A stretch of 46,186 nt of DNA from Amoeboaphelidium occidentale (Eukaryota). Below, piece by piece: positions 247-46,186 of the stretch; position 1 is the stretch's first letter, and each line of letters begins with the position of its first letter. The stretch lies in NCBI GenBank assembly GCA_023515795.1, contig JALGPX010000110.1, positions 1 to 46,186 of the forward strand. The letters are read 5' to 3'. Position numbers and translations under genes: made by a program. The notes under the pieces were generated by a model that had not been told where the DNA came from, ran no database searches, and worked only from the letters and a program-made list of their open reading frames with translations.

Positions 247-1390
247 TTATTCAAGAAGACTTTCAGGCGACTGAACGGGGGTTGTTTGAGTGGAGCACAA
301 ATAGCATTGAGTGACGATGAAGTGTACGAAACGATAAACGACCAGTATCTTTTCATCTCGAACCATCGGGATACCAAGAGCGAATTCATCCGAGGCCCAA
401 ACTTGGCCACCATTGTCAATGTAAATGAATTTCCAATTACTGGCATTTGAACAGATACCCCAAACATTACAATTTTGCTTCTTCGCATCTTTCCTTGTTC
501 TGAACAACGCAGCAGCCTCCGCGATACACTGCCATACATCATCTTCATCCCATGCTTTCTTAGCTTCAACTGCAATGATGTGAGATTCTTTAGGAGGCGA
601 AAAACTGTTGATATCTTCCCCGGCTGCATGTCCAATTGTGTAATCGTGTTTTCCTGAAAGCTTTCTCTTCTNNNNNNNNNNNCGCATCTTTCCTTGTTCT
701 GAACAACGCAGCGGCCTCCGCGATACACTGCCATACATCATCTTCATCCCATGCTTTCTTGGCTTCAACTGCAATGATGTGAGATTCTTTAGGTGGCGAA
801 AAACTGTTGATATCTTCCCCGGCTGCATGTCCAATTGTGTAATCGTGTTTTCCTGAAAGCTTTCTCTTCTTGTTCCCAGACACTGATTCAACAGTCATCG
901 ACAACTCACAAAAGATTCTCAATTTTCCAGCAAATTCCTCACGCGCCACAACATCTCGGAGTATAAGATCAATGAACGTTCTCCTACTAGCCTCGGAATT
1001 CATCGACCAGACTCGGCAGTTCTTGTCGTATTGATCTTTGAATCCTTCTGTTGGGAAGACTGATTCATCAAGTGCAACATCTTGCCAAAGTTTCCGAACC
1101 GTATTCACACCAGTAATGGACGCAATAACGCGATTATCCACGCCTCTAAATGTGTGTTCTTCTACATCAGGATTCAACTTTTGGGCAAAAGTGAGTCTTG
1201 AGCTCCATTCTTCTTCTTTCTTCTCCAACTTAGCCAATTGCGATTTAAGCAATGCTAGCCTTCGCTTCTCTCCTTTGCTAGGCCGTTCCTTCGAGTCGAG
1301 ATCAAGGATTTCCTTGTTGATTTCCTTGATTTCCGTCTCGACGGCCTCAAGTTTGGCAGCGCAGTATTGGAATTGCTGAGTTTGGTCCAT
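247..1390 (-). CDS. Coiled-coil plus PD-(D/E)XK restriction-endonuclease-fold protein (Crinkler REase / HsdR-N like); split by an assembly gap
   Basis: ATG at 1390 (MDQTQQ), coiled-coil N-terminus, then motifs NSEASRRTFIDLIL, GKHDYTIG, AVEAKK, WQCIAE, WGICSNASNWKF. Removing the 484-671/683-870 overlap gives one continuous ORF ending at TAA 247-249. Confidence 0.65.
484..870. repeat. ~188 bp near-identical duplication flanking N gap 672-682 (probable assembly overlap)
   Basis: 484-671 and 683-870 differ at only a few substitutions and abut the gap. Confidence 0.85.
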
Positions 1391-1409
1391 GATAAGAAAA
1401 CCGAAAAAG

Positions 1410-1782
1410 AAATTTCGACGCGTTATCCGGCCCGTTATCAAGTGACGTTTGTCTGGTAAACTCAATGGACTTTCACAACGATATTATTGCCGATTTGTTA
1501 ATCTTGGCTTCCGAACATTCACATTCATAATAACCGCTTGAACAGTCGCATCGCTCTTCTTCCCACGGAACCGAATCCTCATAGTGATACTCATANGAAA
1601 TTTCGACGCGTGATCCGGCCCGTTATCAAGTGACGTTTGTCTGGCAAACTCAATGGACTTTCACAACGATATTATTGCCGATTTGTTAATCTTGGCTTCC
1701 GAACATTCACATTCATAATAACCGCTTGAACAGTCGCATCGCTCTTCTTCCCACGGAACCGAATCCTCATAGTGATACTCAT
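1410..1782. repeat. ~185 bp duplication flanking N at 1596 (probable assembly overlap)
   Basis: gaaatttcgacgcg...gtgatactcata occurs on both sides of the single N. Confidence 0.85.
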
Positions 1783-11017: not shown

Positions 11018-11656
11018 ATGCATAGCATGAGGTTTTTGTCGCAGTTCTTGCAACTTCTGAAACAAGAAGATTTACCAGAGACTACGGAATGGAAAGAAGT
11101 AACGGAAACATGTTATGAAATTGCTACGACGAATACAGATTCCGAAGATGACCAGGAAGTAGCAAAGGAAATTCTGTATGAATTGTATGGAAAATCATTG
11201 CACAAAGAATTTTGGCATGCAGAAGCACTTGAGTTCGTTGAAACCACGGCATTATTAACCCTAAGTCGGCAAGAACGAATTAAAAATGCTGCTGATAGTC
11301 TGGCATGGCTTGCTTATGAATTTAAGCTCAGCTTTAAGGAATTCCGAGTGTCTGGGTCATGCTCGTTTCAATTGCTATTTCAGTGTTTCAGAACTTTTCC
11401 ATACGCGCTCATGTACATTTGGCCAGTCCTATCACAATGCAGAGTTCCCATTGAGCAACAGGCGTTATACGAACAATTCATAAAACTGTTCCTGTCTCAG
11501 TGTTACAAGGAGATTCGATGGTTTGATGCGAAAAAGCTTTTGCCTCTAACGGCGCAATTCAAAACGGATGAAGAGAAGAAAATCTATAAATTATTTACCG
11601 ACTATTTCCTTTTCCTCTTCTTTGTTTTCGGTCACTTTCGAATTGGCATTGTATGA
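11018..11656 (+). CDS. Hypothetical protein; 3' end overlaps convergent YTM1
   Basis: ~210-codon ORF filling the intergenic space, helical-looking composition, no recognised domain. Confidence 0.5.
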   Translation: MHSMRFLSQFLQLLKQEDLPETTEWKEVTETCYEIATTNTDSEDDQEVAKEILYELYGKSLHKEFWHAEALEFVETTALLTLSRQERIKNAADSLAWLAYEFKLSFKEFRVSGSCSFQLLFQCFRTFPYALMYIWPVLSQCRVPIEQQALYEQFIKLFLSQCYKEIRWFDAKKLLPLTAQFKTDEEKKIYKLFTDYFLFLFFVFGHFRIGIV

Positions 11657-12859
11657 CAGAACTCTACCATCTTCACAACCACAAATAATACGCTCTTCAC
11701 TCCATTTGACACAAAACAATCGTCCCAAATTATTCTTCTGCTTTGGTTTAATTGTGAACAGCGCAGTGCTAATCGCGTCTAAATCCCATAACTTCATTAC
11801 ACCGTCGTAACCAACAGACACGAACTTTGAGCTTTTTCCTTCCATACAGAAACTAACACCAGTAACCCATGACTTATGAGCTTTCACGGCTTTCTTGTTA
11901 ACTTCCAGTTGTAAATCATTCTGTTTCTTTGAGGACAGAGGATCATTCCAGACTCTGATAACTCCATCTGCATGACCTGCTATTATACAAGCCAATGAAG
12001 AACCTTCTGAGTTGACACGAGCATCAATTGAACAAACTGCGTGATCGCTACCGACACTAGCAAGACATGCGCGCTGTGATAAGGACCAGATACGAACAGA
12101 CTTATCCATACTGCCAGATATCAAATAATCATTTCCAACTGAAGATAAACAAGATACGGCATCGCTGTGCCCCGTCATTATGAATGATGGATCTTGTTTA
12201 ATTAACTTTCTTCGCTTGGATCTTTCTTCGCCAGTTTCTTGCTTTGGCTGCAGAGCGTACAAGCTTATTGAAGCATCATAGCATCCAACAGCAACGAACT
12301 CTCCGCAAATGCGAACACTCTCAACATTCTTAACGTCTGAGCGCCATAATTCTCTTAATTCGACTTCTTCGTCGTCTTCTTTAGGAGGATAATTAGAAAT
12401 CTTTGCAGCGCAAACGCCATTAGAACCACCGTAAACTAAAATATCACCATTGCAATGAATACTTTTAACAGAACCATCGACATCAAATTTCTTGCCTGCT
12501 ACAGTGATATGGCCATATCCACCAAACACTACTGCGCCACTCTTGGTGCGATCTACTGCGAGAACATATGAATCGCTTTCTTCTGTGTCGCATCGACTAA
12601 CGCGTACAGATTCCAATACCTCCAAAGTCAACACGTTCTCAGTTGATAAATGCTCCTTCTCTACGTACTCTTGAAGTGATGTAGAAAGCAAGCTCTGGTT
12701 GATAATAAAATCATAGTGTTTGCTCGATGATAGCAAATGGTTCACGATGGATGACAGTCCGCTTCTTGTCAAGCTCAAAGGAACGCGTAATCGAACATCC
12801 TCCAAAGCTACAGCCAACGGTTGAATAGCGCTTGTGAATTTCACTTGGATTTCTGCCAT
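11591..12859 (-). CDS. YTM1: Ribosome biogenesis protein Ytm1/WDR12 (NLE domain + WD40)
   Basis: QVKFTS..VPLSLTRSGLSSIVNHLL..YDFIINQSLLSTSL..HLSTENVLTLE (NLE/UBL domain); WD repeats GH..SGSMDKSVRIW, HKSWV..SVGYDGVMKLWD. Confidence 0.88.
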   Translation of the reverse strand: MAEIQVKFTSAIQPLAVALEDVRLRVPLSLTRSGLSSIVNHLLSSSKHYDFIINQSLLSTSLQEYVEKEHLSTENVLTLEVLESVRVSRCDTEESDSYVLAVDRTKSGAVVFGGYGHITVAGKKFDVDGSVKSIHCNGDILVYGGSNGVCAAKISNYPPKEDDEEVELRELWRSDVKNVESVRICGEFVAVGCYDASISLYALQPKQETGEERSKRRKLIKQDPSFIMTGHSDAVSCLSSVGNDYLISGSMDKSVRIWSLSQRACLASVGSDHAVCSIDARVNSEGSSLACIIAGHADGVIRVWNDPLSSKKQNDLQLEVNKKAVKAHKSWVTGVSFCMEGKSSKFVSVGYDGVMKLWDLDAISTALFTIKPKQKNNLGRLFCVKWSEERIICGCEDGRVLSYNANSKVTENKEEEKEIVGK

Positions 12860-12984
12860 TTGACAAGGTTTTGATGTTTGATCAGAAAAATTTGCCGAGG
12901 TGCAGGAGTTATTGCGCTTTTCTAGCAAAATGATCAACGAGAAAAACTCGAAAGTCGTAGTCGCACGATCACAATGCGTCACAA

Positions 12985-13132
12985 TACACAGAAGCATCCT
13001 AACATAAGTTAAAACTATAACTTACATTAAGACTACTGCTAATCAAGTCTTTCCCAGAACATCATTGGCTGCCTCTACCTAGTTTCTGCGTCGAGATCAC
13101 ATTGAGGCATTTGATGGTGTTGAAACACCAGA
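12985..13132 (-). ncRNA. Putative Fanzor omegaRNA scaffold, copy 1
   Basis: Directly 3' of the Fanzor stop; shares GCCTC..ATGTGRTC..AGAA..CTAGGYRGAGGCAGCCAA.GATG..GAAAG..TGATYAGC..GRTGCTTYTGTGTA with 45817-45934; terminal hairpin 12996-13033. Confidence 0.75.
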
Positions 13133-16045
13133 TTAGTTTCCCCTACGGAACGCCGGGGGCTTTCTACCACCATTGGCATTCATGTATAAGAAAACTCTTC
13201 TGATATTCCTTGCTCCATTCACATCTCGATTCCAGCGGGTCCGGCAGTTGTTATTGTTGCAACTCTTGATCGTCCAGATATCGGATTGAACTAACTCATT
13301 ATCACACTTCGAGCACAATTTGCTTGTCCTAAACTCAGGAACCAACCTGCACCTTGTTCTTCGTTTCAATTCCAAGAAAAGATGTTTGTTTGGAGTGGGT
13401 GGATGTCCTCTGGAGTTGTGACTGAAACCTCCACCACCATAAGCAATCACAACATCTTCAGCACCAGCAGCAAGCTCCTTATATAAANTATATAAAGTAT
13501 CATACGCCTTCTGTCGTTTAATTCGCGTCGTCCACCGGAGTCTTCTCCAACGCATGGCCCGGTAGAACCCAAGAAACTCATCGCGATATTCCAAAACATG
13601 TAACAAGTGTGTAATGTAACCATCTGTATTAGAACAGCACGGTGTTGGAGTTAAAGTAATCGCCATATGCCTGTCACGATCAGCTGTTATCCAAGTGTTT
13701 GCCTTCTTGGTAGAGTATCTAGTCCCTGATATCTCTTGCCAGCGACTGTTTGAACATTCCAAAACATCAGCAGCGGTATTCCCAGCCACGGCCACATACA
13801 GAGAGTTTCTGCCAGGGTCCAAAGCATCAACACGAGTCTGCCCATTAATTTCCAGAGGTATAAATTCTCCCTCATAGTTGTAACCCCAATCATTGATCTC
13901 AGATCTCTCAAACTGTTTCATGTTANCACGGTGTTGGAGTTAAAGTAATCGCCATATGCCTGTCACGATCAGCTGTTATCCAAGTGTTTGCCTTCTTGGT
14001 AGAGTATCTAGTCCCTGATATCTCTTGCCAGCGACTGTTTGAACATTCCAAAACATCAGCAGCGGTTTTTCCAGACACAGCGACATACAAGGAGTTTCTT
14101 CCCGGGTCCAAAGCAACAACACGAGTCTGCCCATTAATTTCCAACGGTATAAATTCTCCCTCATAGTTGTAACCCCAATCATTGATCTCAGATCTCTCAA
14201 ACTGTTTCATATTATGCTGGTGATATTCAACGCCATTAGTGGAAATAGAAAACCCAAAGCGCTTTGTAGCCGTAGTGAGTTTGTCTACGTTGAATGCTCG
14301 GCGCCACCATTCCATAGCATGAACTCTGAAAACTACTTTATCCCGAGGAACAACAATCCCAATATTCTCAGAAGTCATTAGATCATGTAGAGCGTCAGTA
14401 TCAATGAGTATAAACTTCTGTTTAAAAGTACTGATGGGAATGAGACTAAACAATCTCAAACCTCTCCCGTGNGGTATAAATTCTCCCTCATAGTTGTAAC
14501 CCCAATCATTCATCTCGGATCTCTCAAACTGTTTCATGTTATGCTGATGATACTCAACACCATTAGTGGAAATAGAGAAACCAAAACGCTTTGTAGCCGT
14601 AGTTAGTTTGTCTACGTTAAATGCTCGGGGCCACCATTCAATCGCATTAACTCTGAAAACCACTTTATCTCTAGGAACTACAATCCCAATATTCTCAGAA
14701 GTCATAAGATCATGCAGAGCGTCTGTATCAATGAGTATGAACTTCTGTTTAAAAGTACTGATGGGAGTGAGACTAAACAATCTCAAACCTCTCCCGTGTA
14801 TCCCATTCTCCTAGCGATTCTGAGCATCTTGTTTATAATTATTAACAAACGTTTTCAAAAGCCTGGACATCGGTTTTAAGTATGTCCTATTCAAAGTAAA
14901 AGTAGAGCACGGGGGATTATTAGAACTGTGATAGTTATTTATTAAATAGAATTTCATGGTCCTTTTTATATTTATTTCAGTTTCATCATTCAGATAAAGT
15001 ATCCAATCTTGAGAGGGCAATGACGGTTGTTTCAGGTCATTCATGATGGAATGACGCTTGTCGTCCGTGAACCATCAAACTTCAACACCCCCTCTAGCNG
15101 CTCCGGAGTAACAGCCTCAATGATGTTTAGCGGAATAGCGTAGAATCCTTCGTCCTCTTCAGTTCGTGTGATTTCATTCATTGCTACTGTAACGACTTCG
15201 TTAAAATCATCTGCACATAAGAAAGCTCTCAATTGTTTACCACGTTTCCAAATCAACCACTTCTTGATCCATTTTAAAAGATTAGTGACCACATGGTTTT
15301 GGCAGTTTGTAGAATGCATCCTAGCCATATTTGAAAGGAGCTGCCCTAACTTGGTGGAGTCATTCCAAGCCAAATGATCAGGCCTGCACCTCGAATATAT
15401 CTCATCCATATACTCATTTATCGAAGGAGTTGAAACAATCTTGTGTTAGTGTGGATTTCTAACTGCGTTAATGGAACATACTGCCTGATAGAACTCTCTC
15501 ATTATACCATCACTAAATCTCAAATCTGGAATGGGTCTGTTCTCTTCAATCATCCAAATCACGTATCCATTCAATAGACGTGAAACTTCAACTTGGATGT
15601 CGGTACAGCGTGCAACAGCATCCATAATAATGTCTTTGAGAGGAGCAATGCGCAATACTGAGTTCAAACCAGTAGTGGTCGTGACGGTCTTTTCAGGCAA
15701 CTCAGTATCTCGATACTGCAGTTTCAACCTAGGCTTGTACAGGGGACAGTTCTTGTTGCAGATTCTCTGATGCTCCGTACTGCCACACTTGCACCTTTTG
15801 CCGCCTTCTGGTTCCTTCCGTTTCTTTCCTCCTGCACTTGGGCCAATGCCACCCAAATCACCCACATCAACTGCCACTCCAGAATACTCAACCATACTCA
15901 TACTCAAAAACCCGTCCGTAGTAAATGTCTTTGGCATTTCATTCTCATCAACTCTCATATTTAAATCCAAGTCCATAGCGTCCTCAACTCGTAGTAAATG
16001 GTACTTATTCTTATGCTCGAAAATACTCATTGAATCCGTAGCCAT
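13133..16045 (-). pseudogene. Fanzor1-type RNA-guided endonuclease (TnpB-derived RuvC), disrupted and fragmented by assembly gaps
   Basis: RLFSLxP..FILIDTDAL, SISTNGV, RuvC-I ALDPGR, VIAYG, GHPPTP, RuvC-II VPEFRTSKLCSKC, Zn pair SCNNNNC, RuvC-III WNRDVNGARNI, C-terminal PPAFRR. In-frame stops at 15446-15448 (TAA) and 14811-14813 (TAG); N gaps at 13488, 13926, 14472, 15099. Start codon uncertain (16045, 15976 or 15901). Confidence 0.9.
13638..14798. repeat. Gap-flanking duplicated Fanzor segments (13638-13922 vs 13927-14211; 14134-14471 vs 14473-14798, approximate)
   Basis: Same protein segments appear twice with substitutions (VDALDPG/VVALDPG, AVAGNT/AVSGKT, WWPRAF/WWRRAF), each joined at an N. 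Confidence 0.85.
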
Positions 16046-16899
16046 ACAAAAAGAGCAAAAGCGAGCTAGCTTTCGAAGAAAGAATGCCTTGAAAGATGGT
16101 TTATGCGTGTGGCGTATGATTTCCCTGCTTGGGTCGAGTTGAAACAACGCGGTTCGTGCTGAAGTCGATGGCATCTTATTTACTCTTAAACGACCAAGGG
16201 ACATGGAATTCACGGATTTTCACGACGATATAGCTTGCTAATGATGTAAAACACTCATATTCACTGGTTTGGATCAACGCCTGAAGTCTAGAAGATATTT
16301 GTGGTATTTGTATGCGTTGCCTGTTACAGCCCAAGGGGCTTAAGGCGTTTTTGCACATTGATGCTACAGATACAACGAGCTACAGTAAGGAGTCTCATGA
16401 CTTCCTCATGAAGAATATATGTCTTGTTAATAAAGATCTTTCATCCGTGTTGAATAATCTTCGATTTAATACTTGTATCTCAGTTGTTTGATTCAAGAAA
16501 ATTGCCAGATTGACCTCTGCCGGGAATTGTAAAAATCTCTAGCCTCAAGAACTTTTCAATCAAAACATAATGCTATCACGCTAATTTAAGCTTAGAGAAA
16601 GACAATGGTAGCTTCATATCCTCGGTTACTTCAAAACTAGAGGAGTAATGCGGTCGGAGAAATTTCAGACCCGTTTGTTCTCCGACCGTATAGCTGAATG
16701 ATTCAGGCACCAATTGTAACAGTTGAGGTACCGATAGAAAGGGCGTACTTTGTCCTTAGTTTGGATGTAGATTTTATTGAGTTTTAGAGTAGTATGATGA
16801 ATTTTTAGTCCACTATGAAAATGGGCTGTCGTGAAACAACACCTAAACGTCACAGACACCTATAATATCAATATCAATCGATAGACAATAGAGTAAAGA

Positions 16900-19321
16900 C
16901 GACCATTATGGAAGGTCAGACTAAAATAGTTAGAACTGTTGAAGATATCTCGCTAAAACTGCTTTTGATGCATAAACGGTGCGCTTATGCTACGAAGCTG
17001 AAACTCGAGCTTCGAGCCCTTTGAGTGTTCCTATTACGATATCCATGCTTCTTATACCTCTATTCGTCTTGGTTGTTACGTTTTCAGCACATTTCGATGT
17101 TTGATTCGATCTTCGCTCGCTCTTGCTCGAGATTTGCTGCAATATCAAACAGCCCTCAGAAAAAACTACCATTCTTACGAATAAAATCAAGTGGCTTAGG
17201 GAATAAACGATAATTTGAATTCTGATGGTCTGGAACGCAATTTATTTAGAATGTTCTTGATAATCCTTCCTTCTTTGATTGAAACAGCGCGATCGCGATC
17301 AAAACATGGCGGCATAGCTTGCGTCCCAACAACTTAAGCCNAATTTGAATTCTGATGGTCTGGAATGCAATTTATTTAAAATGTTCTTGAAAATCCTTCC
17401 TTCTTTGATTGAAACAGCGCGATCGCGATCAAAACATGGCGGCATAGCTTGCGTCCCGACAATCTGTGCCAAATCTGATGGATGATTCTGAAAAGACATC
17501 ATGTGAAGCTCCTTACGCGCGAAATTCAACTCTCAAGCGTGAGTCTTGAGAATGCTTGTTGCCAATTGTTTCTCTGATTGTGAACTTTCTTATAGTTAGA
17601 GTGTGTTTAGCTCCAAAATAGCATATAGAGTTCTTTACCTGTCAAAGATAAAGGAATAGAGTCATACGATAAGGACGTTCAAGAAGAAGTCCATTGAGTT
17701 CTCACATGAGATCAAACATCAGTCTGAAACAACACCACCAAAACGCTACCGTTTCCCGAACTTTAAGCGTCATTTGAAAGAATAGTTAGAAAAGACTCTG
17801 AAATGGGAGTTTCATGGGTGCCGACTTAGAGCTGGCTCCGATATCTCGCTGAAACCACTTTTGGCGCATAAATGATGCCCCGACGCTGTGAAGCGGAAAC
17901 TTTGGCATAGAGCTCCAGAGCATCGAAACTACAATAAACATGCTAATTTTTTCCATGTAATAATGTAATTCTTTAGGAATTTCGATTTTGCTCGAATATT
18001 GAAAGTGCGAAAAGTAAAAGAATTTTTCTGACGGAAACAGCTGCAGAGTCTCAACAAGAAACGACATCGTATACAATGGCGCATACTGCGTTGGCAAGCT
18101 ATTGAAACAATCATCCGAGCGCAGGAAGACGGTGTACGAGTGTAACAAAGTGCTGAGTGGAGCGTGGTTCAAGCAGGCTTTCAAGATGTTTATTTCCAAA
18201 GATAGAAGCATAACAGTTCCACAGAGATAAGAAGACGCATTGAACTTCAAACGTTCATTGATATCTCCAGCCGACGCTGTGTCAATTAGAGGCAGGCTCC
18301 ATAAGCGTGTACTCCACACAGACTATTCAGTCTCTCCAATATGATCTTGAAACAGCCGAGGGTGATGAAGCGGAGCATATCTGAAGATTCAAGTCACCAG
18401 TTACGTCTCAGAGATGTAATATCNCCATCCGAGCGCAGGAAGACGGTGTACGAGTGTAACAAAGTTCTGATTTCAGAGTGGTTAAAGCAGGCTTTCAAGA
18501 TGTTTATTTCCAAAGATGGAAGCATAACAGTTCCACAGAGATAAGAAGACGCATTGAACTTCAAACGCTCGTTGAAATTGCCAAATAACGCTGCGTCAAT
18601 TACCGTCAGGTTCCATAAGCGTGTACTCCACACAGACTATTCAGTCTCTCCAATATGATCTTGAAACAGCCGAGGGTGATGAAGCGGAGCATATCTGAAG
18701 ATTCAAGTCACCAGTTACGTCTCAGAGATGTAATATCATCAGTATCGTGACTCTGAACTNTGATCTTGAAACAGCGGAGCCTGATACAGCGGAGTAGATC
18801 TGTGGCTACAAGTCACCAATTACGTCTCAGGGCTGTAGTATCATCAGTGCTGTGACTCTGAACGGTGGTTCCTTTAGTAATATCATAATGTTAATCGACC
18901 GTTAGTCCAACAGAAGCAATAAAAGAAGGTGAGAGGACTTTTCGAGCGTTTTTATTACGTTTTCTCGCGTGAGGAGCTAACTCGGACTCGCTGACCAGCT
19001 AACTCGGACTTCGCGAGCTCGATTTTGCAAAAAGTTTGCAAATCACAATAAAATCTATTTGGTATGGAGTTCATGTNATCTGAAGATTCAAGTCACCAGT
19101 TACGTCTCAGAGATGTAATATCATCAGTATCGTGACTCTGAACTGCGGTTCCTTGTGCAGTATCATAATCTTAATCGACCGTTAGTCCGATAGAAGCAAT
19201 AAAAGAAGGTGAGAGGACTTTTTCGAGCGTTTTTATTACGTTTTCTCGCATGAGGAGCTAAATCGGACTCGCTGACCAGCTAACTCGGACTTCGCGAGCT
19301 CGATTTTGCAAAAAGTTTGCA
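16900..19321 (-). pseudogene. Decayed, tandemly repeated sequence/gene family of unknown function
   Basis: 16944-17025 resembles 17840-17920; 18112-18423 is repeated at 18425-18735; blocks near 18650-18880 and 18800-19020/19078-19321 recur; reading frames carry many stops. Confidence 0.5.
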
Positions 19322-19414
19322 GGAGTTACAAAATCTAACCGTTTACACCGTTTCGTCAAACACTTGTTCATTCGTAAAAGTTTTACTCCTCGGTTTGATC
19401 AGAGATTATTAGCT

Positions 19415-24414: not shown

Positions 24415-25497
24415 TTAAAGAAGCTGAGATAGAGCCATTACTGAAGCAATTAGGAGCATCCAAGATGGCACGACTGTAGAAGCACCAGAGATCTGACCGT
24501 TGTCATCAATATCATCAGGAGTTGTGGTTGGGATCAAAGTTGTGGTTGCAGTTGAGCTCGTGCTTGAAGATGAAGATGATGTGGAGGTTTTGGTAGAAGT
24601 TGAGCTAGTGGAGGTAGTGGTTTTGGTTGTAGAGGTTGAAGTTGAAGTCGAGGTCGATGAAGAAGTGGAGGTTGATGTTTTGGTGTTGGTGCCAATGACG
24701 CAGAAGTCAGCAAAATTGATTCCACCATACACGCTGTCCATAAGATCAAACATGAACTTTGCTTGATCACGTAGTTTGTTTCTTGTGTCAATACTGTATG
24801 CAAAACGAATGGAGTTGTGATAGATCATTGAAGCAACTGCGAACATCTCATAATGATTTGATCTTAAGTATGCGCCAGTGAATAAATCTGGTCTTGCTGC
24901 CAAATCCAAATCGTAGACTGAAATTATCTTATCGGATATCTTTTTGAATTCAGGCAAGTCATCAATTGCAGCGTTCAAAGCATGAGCGAATTCGTGTTGC
25001 AATACATTTTCACCCAAATAAGCGCCATTAGGTGCTTTTGCAACACTAGGACCATCAACATAAATAGCTTTGTAAGGGCGTATTGAATTTGCCCACATAA
25101 AGACAGCCTTGTATGCATCATAGTGATCAGCTTCGGGGAAATCCAATGCACTCTGAGAACCATCCATCAAGACGATCACAATACCAGCTGATCCCAAGTA
25201 AGAACATAGCTTGGCAGTTTTTTCAGCTGAACACATGCTGTTAACCGTGTATAGAGCATTGATCAAAGCATATTTGTGAGTTGCATCGTTCGTATACTTA
25301 TCGGATGCAGTAATAACAATACCAGATGAATGCTTGACGTATTTTTCGTAATATGTTGGTAACTTGGCGGTTCCTGACACGATAACCTTTCCATCATTAG
25401 TTTTTATGGAAGGATCAGGGCATGTTGCATCAATTAATGCTGAAACAGTTGACAACAACAAAGATAATGTGTAAGCAGAGAATGTTGTAAGTTTCAT
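24415..25497 (-). CDS. Secreted, probably GPI-anchored zincin-like (HEXXH) protein with Ser/Thr stalk
   Basis: Signal peptide MKLTTFSAYTLSLLLSTVSA; HEFAH at 24982-24996 followed by YLRSNHYEMFA; S/T-rich tract; hydrophobic C-terminus. Confidence 0.75.
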   Translation of the reverse strand: MKLTTFSAYTLSLLLSTVSALIDATCPDPSIKTNDGKVIVSGTAKLPTYYEKYVKHSSGIVITASDKYTNDATHKYALINALYTVNSMCSAEKTAKLCSYLGSAGIVIVLMDGSQSALDFPEADHYDAYKAVFMWANSIRPYKAIYVDGPSVAKAPNGAYLGENVLQHEFAHALNAAIDDLPEFKKISDKIISVYDLDLAARPDLFTGAYLRSNHYEMFAVASMIYHNSIRFAYSIDTRNKLRDQAKFMFDLMDSVYGGINFADFCVIGTNTKTSTSTSSSTSTSTSTSTTKTTTSTSSTSTKTSTSSSSSSTSSTATTTLIPTTTPDDIDDNGQISGASTVVPSWMLLIASVMALSQLL

Positions 25498-41775: not shown

Positions 41776-43005
41776 TCATTTGGAATAAATCCATACGCAA
41801 TCTGCCTGATCTGTTGCGACAATGTACTTCATATCATGACTTACAGCAACTGATTTGATTCTTTCGGTAGACTCAAGGGTAGATAATTTCCAGACATACT
41901 TTTGAGACGTCGATTTCGCATACCTTTGCTTTGACAAATTTCCCAGATCATACACGAGAACATTTCCATCCAAATCTCCGACTGCATAAAAAGCTGCTCC
42001 AGACTCATCTTTTGATACAGTTCCCTTCATTGTGTAAGCAAGGTCGCCTTTCCATTCTAATCTTTTAATAACATCAGGGCTCTGTTTGGTGGAGGTTGAT
42101 AAATTGCACAAGATCACTCCATCATCGCCTGTAGTCTTCAAAAGAACGACATCGTCTTCGATAAAATGTACATCATCAAATGGGCTTTCAGGCCATCCAT
42201 CTCCATCAAGATAAACTCTCTGTTTCCTTCCATTTAAATTTCTAATATCCAAAGAACAATCACTATCACCAATAATTATTTTAGCACCAGAGAAATCTAC
42301 AGCCACACTTAACGGAAACATATAATTAGATAATTTAAACTCATTTAAGCACTTTGCTCCTTCATTCAAATAAGCATCCCCAATATCCCATCGTTTTACT
42401 GTGCCATCTTCAGATCCACTTAGAAGAATATTCGGATTATCTGTGCAGAACTTTAGGCAAACGACTGGTCTTGTGTGTCCTTGTAAATACTTGAAACAAG
42501 TTCCAATTTCGTAGTTTATCAATTTTACAGTCTTGGCCTCGCCCGCAACAGCCAACAACCGAACAGGATCATCTTCCTTATTCCTCACAACCGTCCAAGC
42601 CAAGCAGGTAAATATTTCATGTACTTCATCCAAATGAAGATACTTCATAAAGACCTTTCCTGTTTCACAATCGGTAAAACATACGGAGTTACTTCCACAT
42701 GTTGCAACAACATACTTGCCTTCGTTGTCGTCACAAAGAGGCATAAACGCAGAGTCTGAAACATCAGGAGCCACCATATCTGCATCAGTATTAGCATCTT
42801 CTCGAAAATGTAGCCTGTAACAGAACTTCAGACTGTAACCGCCATTTGGGGAAGTCTTCCGTGCCAATGGAGACAATAGTAATTCTTCACCTTGGTCATC
42901 TGGGTCAACGAAACAAGACTTCTTTCTACTGATCGAAGAAGCTGATCTTCTATTGCGTAGAGAAGGTGTCGAGTTCTCTTCGTTTGGACTCGTTTGCACC
43001 ATCAT
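41776..43005 (-). CDS. WD40 protein resembling the LRWD1/ORCA WD domain
   Basis: ATCGSNSVCFTDCETGKVFMKY..EIFTCLAWT..LLAVAG..GHTRPVVCLKF..RWDIG follows the LRWD1 WD pattern; no LRR region. Confidence 0.7.
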   Translation of the reverse strand: MMVQTSPNEENSTPSLRNRRSASSISRKKSCFVDPDDQGEELLLSPLARKTSPNGGYSLKFCYRLHFREDANTDADMVAPDVSDSAFMPLCDDNEGKYVVATCGSNSVCFTDCETGKVFMKYLHLDEVHEIFTCLAWTVVRNKEDDPVRLLAVAGEAKTVKLINYEIGTCFKYLQGHTRPVVCLKFCTDNPNILLSGSEDGTVKRWDIGDAYLNEGAKCLNEFKLSNYMFPLSVAVDFSGAKIIIGDSDCSLDIRNLNGRKQRVYLDGDGWPESPFDDVHFIEDDVVLLKTTGDDGVILCNLSTSTKQSPDVIKRLEWKGDLAYTMKGTVSKDESGAAFYAVGDLDGNVLVYDLGNLSKQRYAKSTSQKYVWKLSTLESTERIKSVAVSHDMKYIVATDQADCVWIYSK

Positions 43006-43083
43006 AAGGAAACCACAAATTTTGTGAATGTTTGGAATCTTTTGCCAAGCTCATCTTATCCCCACAGTATTCTCGCCATTAGA

Positions 43084-44049
43084 ATGTCTCCAGTGCTGAA
43101 TTCTGCTGCCAGGCGACATGAGATCAACACTATATATGGTAGTCCAGTTGAGGCTAATGATCATTTGATGCCAACAGCACCACCGATGGATCAAAGACCA
43201 TCTATATGTGGCGGTGCTTCAGCAAGATCTGATCTTAATCCACCTTCATACACTTCAATGGCTCAACCTGCTGCACATATTGAGTTTGGAGATGTTTTTG
43301 ATGAAAGGAGAACTTCGAGCCTTAGCCGTGTTTCAATAGGGACAAGGAAATCCTCATGCTCCACGTCTCTGATATGCCTTCCATTCAAGGCTACAACTTG
43401 GTTTCACTTATCCTACTTAATTACATCGACTGTTTTTACAAGTATCATTGTGTGCTGGCTTTTGATCAGTCTGGTATTGACAGTTGTGATGATGATCATA
43501 CCTCCTTTGGGTTTAATGATCGCCTTGGTATCATTCTCTTCATGGCGAATGATTGCTAACATGGACAGATTTATAATTTTAAACCACATTCATTCTAGAA
43601 CTGTTTCAGATGGTCACTCATCGTCTCAACTCGCAAGAAGAGCAACAATCTCAAGACCACATATCGCGGGAGAATTGGGACCAGATGGAACTACACTAAC
43701 AAAAAGGGTCAAATATCTTGCTACAAATTCATATACCTGGAAACCTTTTTTGTACTTTCCGTTCGTTAAACTGCCATTCACTGCTGTCTCATGTTGCCTA
43801 TTCTTTGCTCTGCTTCTATGTTCTCTATTTGGAATGTTCTACTGGTTGATACTATGGCAATGTGGTGAAGAATGCACTAGATACATCCCTACTGAAGTAT
43901 TTAAGGCCATTACAATCTTCAATACGTTTGAAGCATCGCTTTTCTTGATACCAATTGGAATCTTGCTGTTCTTCCTTTCATTTTTGGTATTAGATATCAT
44001 ATCTGGAATACAGAGACATCTTGTAAAAGATTTCCTGTCTCCATCTTGA
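43084..44049 (+). CDS. Polytopic membrane protein with putative-sensor-like domain
   Basis: TW..YL..TM-TM..WRMIANMDR..TWKPFLYF..KLP..TM pattern resembles the PF13796 sensor module; no kinase domain. Confidence 0.6.
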   Translation: MSPVLNSAARRHEINTIYGSPVEANDHLMPTAPPMDQRPSICGGASARSDLNPPSYTSMAQPAAHIEFGDVFDERRTSSLSRVSIGTRKSSCSTSLICLPFKATTWFHLSYLITSTVFTSIIVCWLLISLVLTVVMMIIPPLGLMIALVSFSSWRMIANMDRFIILNHIHSRTVSDGHSSSQLARRATISRPHIAGELGPDGTTLTKRVKYLATNSYTWKPFLYFPFVKLPFTAVSCCLFFALLLCSLFGMFYWLILWQCGEECTRYIPTEVFKAITIFNTFEASLFLIPIGILLFFLSFLVLDIISGIQRHLVKDFLSPS

Positions 44050-44187: not shown

Positions 44188-45725
44188 ATGATAAATTGGC
44201 CTGATGAATTGACAGTTCCTGATAATGAGCAGGTTGGGAACTTATTGCAGAAAATATCGTCCAAGTTAAATTTAAAATCCACAGATTCCGAAGCTTTGGC
44301 TGATTATTTGGATCAGAACGACCCTTTCAAGGAGACACGAAATGATTTCGAAATACCTCGTAGATGCGATGTCGTGAATAAGTCGCATGACCCTTCTAAG
44401 TCCATACAAGAATCTACTCAGTCTGCGTCAAACGACAAGTCAAAGTTGGTGTCAGAGCAAGATATGACAAAGCCTTGCCTTTACTTTTGTGGCAATTCGT
44501 TGGGGTTGATGCCAAAGATTACAAAGAAGTTCTTAAATGAAGAATTGGATGTATGGGCTTCCAGGTATGCTGCTAGTCAATGCTCGTTTTTAAACTTATG
44601 ATTTAGTGGTGTTCATGGACATTTTCATCATGCTTATGGTAGACCATGGGCTCCTATTGATGATAATGTTGTCGAAGGAAGTGCTAAATTAGTTGGAGCG
44701 CTGCCGGAAGAAGTTTCAATACTCAACTCATTATCAGTTAATCTGCACTTGCTTTTGGTGTCATTCTACAAACCAACAGCGAAACGCAACAAGATTTTAA
44801 TTGAGAACAAGGCTTTCCCTTCAGATTATTACATTGTCCAGAGTCAGATTAAGTTTCATGGCTACAATCCTGATGAATGTTTAATTGCGGTGAAACAGAG
44901 AGATGGTGAAGTCGCATGGCGCACAGAAGATATCCTCAAAACAATTGAAGAGCGCGGCGATGAAATAGCACTTGTGATGCTTTCAGGTGTTCAGTATTTT
45001 ACTGGTCAATTGTTTGATATAAAAACAATAACTGAAGCAGCGCATAGAAAGGGTTGCATGGTTGGATTTGATCTGGCTCATGCAGTAGGTAATGTTGTGC
45101 TGAAGTTGCATGAATGGAATGTTGATTTCGCTGCGTGGTGTTCTTACAAATATTTGAATAGTGGTCCTGGTTCGATATCTGGAATTTTTGTGCACAAGAA
45201 TCATCACACCGCCGAGTTGAAACGATTGGCTGGGTGGTGGGGTAACAAGGAAGAAACAAGATTTCAAATGAGACCAGGTAATCTTAATTGAGTTATGATT
45301 TAAGTTTATGTTTAGAGTTTGATCCGATTCTTGGCGCTAATGGTTACAGAATGTCTAATCCCTGTGTCATGGCTGTAGTTTCCCTTTTGGGCAGTCTTGA
45401 AGTGTTTAAAAAGACTTCTATTGAAGAGCTGAACAAGAAGTCTCGTGTTCTGACAGGATATTTGGAGTATCTGATTCTTAATGATCCTTTGTTGAGCAAG
45501 AAAGTTAAAATCATCACACCTTCAGATCCAAGACAGAGAGGCTGTCAGTTATCGCTTGTTTTAGATGGCAACTTAAAGGCGATCTTTGAAAAGCTCTCCA
45601 ATGCTGGTGTTGTTTGCGACAAGAGGGAGCCAGATTGTATTCGCGTGGCGCCTGTTCCCCTGTACAACACTTTTAAAGACGTTTATGAGTTTGTGGTAAT
45701 TTTGAGGTGCAGTTTAGCTGCATAA
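44188..45725 (+). CDS. BNA5: Kynureninase (introns 44565-44606 and 45278-45315)
   Basis: [72 protein letters not shown]. Confidence 0.96.
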
Positions 45726-45816
45726 AACGATCTCGATTACAGTATTTTCCTGAAAGTAAGCAAGGCGATTAAAACAAAATAAAAAATGACCTTGATCAAT
45801 TCCAAGAAAAACACTG

Positions 45817-45944
45817 TACACAAAAGCACCCATCACCATATTACTACAGTGATGAGCTATCGCTGATCATGGCTTTCATGAGAGTCATCTTTGGCTGCCT
45901 CCGCCTAGACTTCTCCACCATGACCACATGAGGCTGTTGTTGTT
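45817..45944 (-). ncRNA. Putative Fanzor omegaRNA scaffold, copy 2
   Basis: Homologous to 12985-13108; terminal hairpin GCTCATCACTGTA-GTAA-TATGGTGATGGGT (45828-45857) with a GNRA loop. Confidence 0.75.
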
Positions 45945-46186
45945 TCAGTTACCATGCGGGTTTCCCCTTCGGAACGCTTCAGGCCTGTAACCACCATTAG
46001 CATTCATATGAAGGAAAACGCGCATGATATTCCTGGGTGCATTGACATCTCGATTCCAGCGGGTCCAGCAGTTGTTATTGTTGCAACTCTTGATCGACCA
46101 GAATCGAGACTGAACCAGTTCATGATCACACAACGAGCACATCTTGCTCGTCCTGAACTCAGGCACCAACCTCGCCCTTGTTCTTC
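45945..46186 (-). CDS. C-terminus of a second Fanzor1-type nuclease (truncated by window edge)
   Basis: VPEFRTSKMCSLC..SCNNNNCWTRWNRDVNAPRNI..PEAFRRGN; 56 of 70 residues identical to copy 1 by manual count. Confidence 0.9.
   Translation of the reverse strand, partial: RTRARLVPEFRTSKMCSLCDHELVQSRFWSIKSCNNNNCWTRWNRDVNAPRNIMRVFLHMNANGGYRPEAFRRGNPHGN

Follow-up and report, generated by a model that had tools for sequence, protein, structure and literature searches.

The region downstream of a Fanzor1 gene in Amoeboaphelidium occidentale is best read as the right terminus of a Fanzor1 element that is multi-copy and likely encodes an omegaRNA, with a scaffold that runs to position 12909 (45737 in a second copy, predicted) and a guide just beyond it. 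The probability of this reading is put at roughly 0.7. The window, meaning the whole 46,186-nucleotide stretch of contig JALGPX010000110.1 analyzed here, contains a Fanzor1 gene (copy 1) and the last part of a second (copy 2), and the comparison rests on two full sequences, the copy 1 and copy 2 regions. In the best reading, the omegaRNA scaffold is roughly 220 nt long, passes through a hairpin (called H here) and a further stem-loop of 76-80 nt, and ends in UAA at 12909. The observations beneath it are D, E and D catalytic motifs in the protein, conserved non-coding blocks, paired hairpins on the strand of the gene, a repeat end at 12909, and direct repeats. The first-pass annotation had described the region as an omegaRNA of a Fanzor element, and this description is supported by position, fold, strand bias and protein family for a Fanzor1 element, the RNA itself being predicted. 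The predicted scaffold, which is also the right end of element 1, occupies 12909-13132 on the minus strand, is multi-copy, and measures 224 nt from stop codon to element end; this region folds with a z-score of -3.2 (1/200 shuffles). A 15-nt guide is predicted at 12894-12908 (minus strand) in unique flank, its length taken by analogy.

Known Fz1 omegaRNAs span the element end plus 14-15 nt of flank kept as guide, include the target-site duplication (TSD), end in a stem and measure 75 to 150 nt, with a length of up to 229 nt given for B. salamandrivorans (PMC10432273). Fanzor omegaRNA directs cutting beside a TAM at the element-free site; gene conversion that restores the element after cutting is shown for prokaryotic TnpB, not Fanzor (further sources on Fanzor are PMC10530073, PMC10288648 and PMC13565253). 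The Fanzor protein of this locus is already catalogued, and omegaRNAs are a known kind of RNA. Its C-terminal frame (13133-13921) matches the A. occidentale model MP638_002260 (KAI3657448.1), which is entered as FZ1 at 13133-15976 on the minus strand in the supplement of Saito et al. (PMC10432273) and is among the Fanzor hits of Yoon et al. (PMC10711439). In the accessible supplements of Saito et al. (1 and 2 aside), “Amoeboaphelidium” occurs in the tree table only and is absent from the tested-orthologue table, and the Jiang supplements do not mention it. Literature searches returned no paper with both Amoeboaphelidium and TnpB, and the omegaRNA and element ends of the A. occidentale Fanzor were not found in print by these searches.

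The Fanzor1 gene of copy 1 lies at 13133-16213 (minus strand). Its protein matches Pfam Cas12f1-like_TNB (E 2.9e-8), and a profile built from 17 relatives finds SpuFz1 (E 4.7e-33), PpFz1 (9e-30) and GtFz1 (4e-25), with a Fanzor2 chain at only 4.7e-9; these profile scores place the protein nearer to the Fz1 structures than to those of Fz2 or TnpB. The RuvC-I DPG motif is present, with D35 and P36 invariant in 19 aligned sequences. The alternative RuvC-II glutamate (E-x-x-TS-x-x-C) before the zinc finger and the RD after it are also present, and E49, T52, S53, C56, C59, R85 and D86 are invariant across 12 sequences. At the place of the WED-domain TDG motif the window protein has TNG, and relatives have TDG or TNG. 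Among the named gene models of A. occidentale, 12 or more are relatives of this Fanzor.

In this assembly the copy 1 gene, for which an intact frame of 600-700 aa would be expected, is in pieces, which counts against the best reading: scaffold joins of a single N, each with a duplicated overlap, lie at 13488, 13926, 14472 and 15099, and the frame is interrupted by stops at 15446 and near 14811. The apparent tandem duplications inside the Fanzor gene were rejected as biology, as every one sits at a single-N join. Further N joins in the window are at 672-682, 1596, 6780, 17341, 18424, 18760 and 19077, and most of the joins are flanked by duplicated overlaps of 67-326 bases at 90-100% identity; they introduce false tandem duplications into public gene models, among them the Fanzor entries of 783 and 1744 aa. 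Copy 2 retains the C-terminal 80 codons (45945-46186, minus strand) and is truncated by the contig end. Its frame is four codons longer than the first-pass annotation had it, with the stop at 45945-45947; it shares 59 of 74 aligned residues with copy 1, and 80% DNA identity over these 74 codons. The window as a whole is a gene-dense eukaryotic contig. A gene at 247-1465 (minus strand) has no Pfam hit and shows a coiled N-terminus and a D...VEAKK...Q motif, which is reminiscent of PD-(D/E)XK nuclease-like domains. The product of 24415-25497 (minus strand; no Pfam hit at E 0.01) appears to be secreted and has an HExxH motif and a tail rich in Ser/Thr, and 42994-44049 (plus strand) encodes a membrane protein with Pfam “Sensor” (PF13796, E 2.7e-8).

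Downstream of both Fanzor genes, the non-coding stretches 12985-13108 and 45817-45934 align as previously noted, with a score of 42 (shuffle mean 15.5) that none of 2000 dinucleotide shuffles reached. Within them lies hairpin H, whose sequence had been said to be swapped between copies while remaining fully paired, and both parts of that statement hold. In copy 1 (12996-13033, minus strand) the arms 13033-13018 and 13011-12996 form 16/16 pairs, 4 of them G:U, around a 6-nt loop. In copy 2 (45828-45857, minus strand; probability 0.95-0.98) the arms 45857-45845 and 45840-45828 form 13/13 pairs, again with 4 G:U, around a GTAA (GUAA) loop. The arms do not align between the copies: their score of 10 is reached by 1587/2000 shuffles. 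These two are the only uninterrupted hairpins of at least 13 bp on the minus strand of the 46-kb window, and the plus strand has two others, located elsewhere. Richness in G:U on the minus strand was likewise borne out, since all eight pairs that depart from Watson-Crick pairing in the two hairpins read as G:U on the strand of the gene, an outcome of 1 in 256 by simple arithmetic if transitions were random. The fold energies of the two copies are -48.3 and -45.6 kcal/mol on the plus strand versus -68.6 and -74.1 kcal/mol on the minus strand.

Contigs of four public runs (X1, X2, X3 and X5) were mapped on 12700-13480; X1 is possibly the assembly's own sample, and the others come from three other studies. 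Among the variants listed, a loop letter varies between UUCG and UACG in the run contigs, both of the UNCG tetraloop pattern. Two smaller helices proposed earlier fared unevenly. Closure of H by AGC/GCT can form in both copies but has a low ensemble probability (0.00-0.34), and a neighbouring register (GCAG/CUGU versus GCGA/UUGU) is an equal rival. GCCTC/GAGGC, a helix with a variable insert at 13070-13109 (minus strand), can also pair in both copies, but its probability is 0.995 in copy 1 and about 0 in copy 2. As a candidate first stem-loop it has 5-6 bp and is unstable in copy 2, the corresponding Fz1 feature having 7 bp. Among the X1 variants listed, one depth value (105.2) is common to the changes at 13104-13105 and the loss of one base at 13074, so they are probably on one contig; together they would convert a U-A pair of this helix to C-G. 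A loose end at 13117, found once per run in four runs among those listed, speaks against it, as it appears to be without the GCCUC 5' arm.

Pairwise similarity of the copies does end at TGCTTYTGTGTA, as had been observed, and this exact match occurs only at 12985 and 45817; beyond it, the two tails score 20, a value reached by 104/2000 shuffles. The conclusion that TGTGTA marks the boundary of scaffold and guide is not supported. In copy 1, multi-copy sequence runs 76 nt further, to 12909, and the supposed flank can itself form a stem-loop in both copies. The loss of similarity at TGTGTA would thus reflect a further helix whose sequence is swapped between two subfamilies, and not the end of the element. 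In all four runs single-contig depth is flat to 12888, steps up in the bin holding 12909, and is high across 12985. Depths across the step, which are sums over contigs and not copy numbers, rise from 101 to 1060 to 3917 in X1, and through 10, 82 and 361 in X2, 27, 171 and 749 in X3, and 6, 15 and 64 in X5. Among the loose ends listed (24 rows), six X3 contigs and five X5 contigs stop just before 12909 with low agreement (0.5 and 0.56), which indicates different flanks, and none lies at 12985. One X1 contig covers 12910-13127 at a depth of 730, against 101 for the flank contig, and has 4 differences. Sequence that is multi-copy to 12909 with divergent flanks beyond it places the end of copy 1 at 12909, where the minus strand reads ...GCGCAATAA.

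Element 1 lies between divergent host genes, an NLE+WD40 gene, which we take to be YTM1/WDR12, and an ADF/cofilin-domain gene, presumably coactosin. It adjoins the NLE+WD40 gene, 50 bases (12859-12908) upstream of the likely start, so its 3' transcript would enter the 5' region of that gene on the same strand; the predicted copy 1 guide is 35-49 nt upstream of the likely start codon (12859). The long frame 11591-12997 extends into the element by chance only. For copy 2, the element end is predicted at 45737 from the anatomy shared with copy 1, 11 bases past the stop codon of a convergent kynureninase gene (45723-45736), and element DNA would then make up most of the 3' UTR of that gene. The guide predicted from the fold, at 45722-45736 (minus strand), would lie antisense to the 3' end of the kynureninase gene, its stop codon included.

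The tail at 12909-12986 (minus strand) is a candidate terminal stem-loop region that the first-pass annotation missed. Both tails can be folded into a long stem-loop that runs from the TA of TGTGTA to TA-A, at 12986-12909 (78 nt) in copy 1 and at 45818-45737 (82 nt, minus strand) in copy 2. The copy 2 stem is strong (z -4.5 to -6.7, 0/200 shuffles), with a base helix probability of 0.85. The copy 1 stem is weak (z -1.0 to -1.5), with a base helix probability of 0.00-0.43, and competes with a second pairing, which counts against the best reading. In this pairing the linker at 13041-13053 (minus strand) is complementary to tail positions 12950-12962, with 10/13 pairs in the window and 13/13 with the letters of X2, X3 and X5. 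The copy 1 duplex has an energy of -21.3 kcal/mol, reached in 4/1000 shuffles (360 and 901/1000 for flank controls); for copy 2 it is not significant (192/1000), a further point against the best reading. Read with the letters of the other runs, the linker finds full pairing at one minus-strand site in the window only, and that site is the tail. Among the variants listed, the X2, X3 and X5 letters at 13041, 13043, 13046 and 13048 each make a Watson-Crick pair with 12950-12962, the letter at 13046 being found in 1/4 contigs of X5 only, and the letter at 12951 in most contigs breaks 1 of the 13 pairs. A second register pairs 13045-13039 with the UUGAUCA motif of both tails, with 7/7 pairs in copy 1, its variant and copy 2. 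Either predicted copy 1 fold, terminal stem or linker-tail, places the tail within the scaffold.

How much of the region belongs to the RNA is the subject of an alternative that is unlikely but has several observations in its favor. According to it, the omegaRNA is the last part only (the tail of about 76 nt plus guide, or H plus tail), and the blocks upstream have another role, in processing, at the mRNA 3' end or for the transposon. The tail with TAA measures 76-81 nt, the size of the SpuFz1 scaffold, and a fold started at 13045 gives H a probability of 0.95 and the terminal stem its best value of 0.43. In CrFz1, a conserved upstream region is missing from the small RNA. Conservation between subfamilies upstream of the tail and the linker complementary to the tail argue for the longer scaffold of the best reading instead. 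The guide boundary is identical under both.

The element itself can be bracketed by an 11-bp direct repeat, a putative TSD, at 12901-12911 (right copy) and 19318-19328 (left copy). It encloses 6.4 kb, and 0.0008 such repeats are expected by chance in 3.2 kb; its first three minus-strand bases, TAA, are the constant end of the other copies. Among the contigs listed, four (from X2, X3 and X5) match 12702-12904 and continue for 316-1896 bases without the element, and the insertion thus seems absent in those samples. All four depart from the window at 12904, inside the direct repeat, and one is 11% divergent. The departure is 7 bases short of the inner edge of the repeat (12904, not 12911); this is not what a simple TSD would lead one to expect, and it weighs against the best reading. 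The 5' part of the element, about 3.1 kb (16214-19317), contains scaffold duplicates, and the 10 frames examined yielded no Pfam family and no transposase (DDE, RepHel); no Crypton or RepHel fragment was found in element 1. The element may be non-autonomous. A 178-aa frame at 17789-18322 was not accepted as a gene, having no Pfam or Atlas hit. A 62-base direct repeat (77% identity) at 16944-17005 and 17840-17901 is also seen in the 5' part, not at an N join.

The left end is less sharply defined. A paralogous left end in scaffold filler at 18798-19040 is 90% identical to that of copy 1; the two are alike through TGCA, then differ over 9 bases, and then share TAGATTTT (p about 1e-4), with which the first hairpin arm of the element itself can pair. 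The paralog has no TAA at the position where copy 1 has it, contrary to what the best reading would lead one to expect. These differences, the lack of TAA and the divergence at 12904 place the left terminus between 19317 and 19337. In the filler at 18798-19076 the 36 bases upstream of this second left end differ in sequence, and TTATTG, the reverse complement of the last six bases of the right end, is also present. End-to-end inverted similarity of the element is marginal, at 13/19 in register (38/2000 shuffles, 22/2000 random windows; p 0.01-0.03). A 120-nt unanchored comparison of the ends was not significant (147/500), and an inverted-repeat search for a TGTGTA copy at the left end gave none.

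These ends bear on a second alternative, in which the hairpins serve a Helitron2-like HUH transposase as end signals in single-stranded DNA and RNA folding is secondary. It fits the lack of a strong TIR and of a transposase inside the element, the TTTG that precedes the direct repeat, as described for CRe-1 Helitron2 copies (PMC3627910), and a 5' hairpin that can form at the left end. The candidate ATIR is only a 7-nt match, 16-22 nt from the 3' end (Helitron2: 8-15 bp, 20-30 nt), and the G:T-rich stems are weak as DNA (-6.4 and -6.2 kcal/mol), which makes this improbable. The CRe-1 3' region also yields the small RNA, so DNA-end and RNA roles need not be mutually exclusive. Highly doubtful is the form of the earlier boundary in which TGTGTA closes the scaffold and the 15 nt after it act as a fixed, element-encoded guide. 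The stop of pairwise similarity there, a SpuFz1 scaffold that ends in TA, and the fixed-guide TnpB derivatives on record would suit it, but the next 76 nt are multi-copy and base-paired, and known Fz guides derive from variable flank. A neutral leftover, with an alignment due to shared ancestry and hairpins that are decayed inverted repeats of a dead element, would suit the broken gene and the one variant without the GCCUC arm, but is scarcely credible given that unalignable arms are completely paired at the same place in both copies with all wobbles on one strand.

The best reading has counterparts in described systems. SpuFz1 of Spu-1 (Saito et al., 2023; PMC10432273) likewise combines a Fanzor1 protein with a structured stop-to-end region, a last stem that closes at the end, and a scaffold that ends in TA(A). 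The present element differs in its length from stop to end (about 220 nt versus 75-80 nt), in having 13/19 at best in place of 30-nt conserved inverted repeats, and in its 11-bp direct repeat where Spu-1 has TA. GtFz1, PpFz1 and B. salamandrivorans Fz1 omegaRNAs (PMC11423790, PMC10432273), likened by description, have several stem-loops with distal stems unconstrained in sequence, and their range of 71-229 nt covers the size found here. Distal stems of Fz1 omegaRNAs are described as dispensable or unconstrained, and the swapped H arms fit this. MCi-2 of Mucor circinelloides and the CRe-1 Helitron2 (Bao and Jurka, 2013; PMC3627910) share the lack of a clear TIR, an intact 3' end and a fuzzy 5' end, with TSDs of 11-12 bp or 7-19 bp that have a fixed start or a T-rich tetranucleotide before them; the present case is one locus only, with TAA as the fixed part. 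The SfAV Fanzor1 reRNA (Yoon et al., 2023; PMC10711439) has a three-stem scaffold with a terminal stem, TSD bases in the scaffold and an extension of about 15 nt. Unlike in SfAV, only the first 3 repeat bases are constant here, which would leave the remaining 8 to the guide.

Searches beyond the window gave no relatives of the 3' region. Of 38 viral and 37 metagenome loci, none of the 75 matches it beyond chance hits of 17-28 nt; the scaffold motif had 0 matches in viral contigs, and no further full copies were found. A 16-nt motif gave 120 chance matches in prokaryotic genomes, and one 38-nt hit at 84% (80 loci checked) was treated as chance. The one Rfam match, a snoRNA fragment at another place in the window (E 0.44), was put down to chance. 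In a metagenome locus (L039, 4578-7915), on a contig with a VLTF3-like gene, a Fanzor1 relative (47% across the C-terminus) neighbors a DDE_3 transposase; the inverted repeats there are imperfect and 25 nt long, the right one ending about 150 nt past the stop. Transposons of different types carry related Fanzors.

Under the best reading, the element transcript would read about 15 nt into the flank and be processed into an RNA, at most about 240 nt long, that loads on Fanzor. The complex would recognize a TAM ending in TAA together with the flank-derived guide sequence, the two being adjacent only at the element-free allele. Fanzor would cut this allele, and repair from the filled allele would restore or spread the element. 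As the right junction also holds TAA and the full guide, the TAM would have to exceed TAA and discriminate against the bases that the element itself presents at this junction. At the left junction TAA is accompanied by only 8 matching bases, a match predicted to be too short for cutting; an 8-bp duplex in PpFz1 was an intermediate without DNA loaded. The H arms may drift freely because distal stems would be held by shape and not sequence, as in solved Fz1 complexes. A broader proposal, put forward as a long shot, is Fanzor-assisted insertion of a nearly TIR-less, transposase-free unit that is precise at TAA on the right and fuzzy on the left, with a TSD split into TAA in the scaffold and 8 guide bases, and an omegaRNA that switches between the terminal hairpin and the 13-bp linker-tail pairing.

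Where whole helices are swapped, placing omegaRNA ends by the loss of pairwise similarity can mislead. Cloning with the TGTGTA boundary would truncate the scaffold by 76-80 nt and put element sequence in the place of the guide. The corrected end yields a guide, a TAM prediction (TAA-ending, 4 nt or longer), and, in other samples, an allele that naturally lacks the element. If Fanzor-assisted insertion were true, the element would offer a multi-copy, strain-polymorphic system for testing whether the unusually long TSDs of CRe-1 and MCi-2 elements arise from Fanzor cutting.
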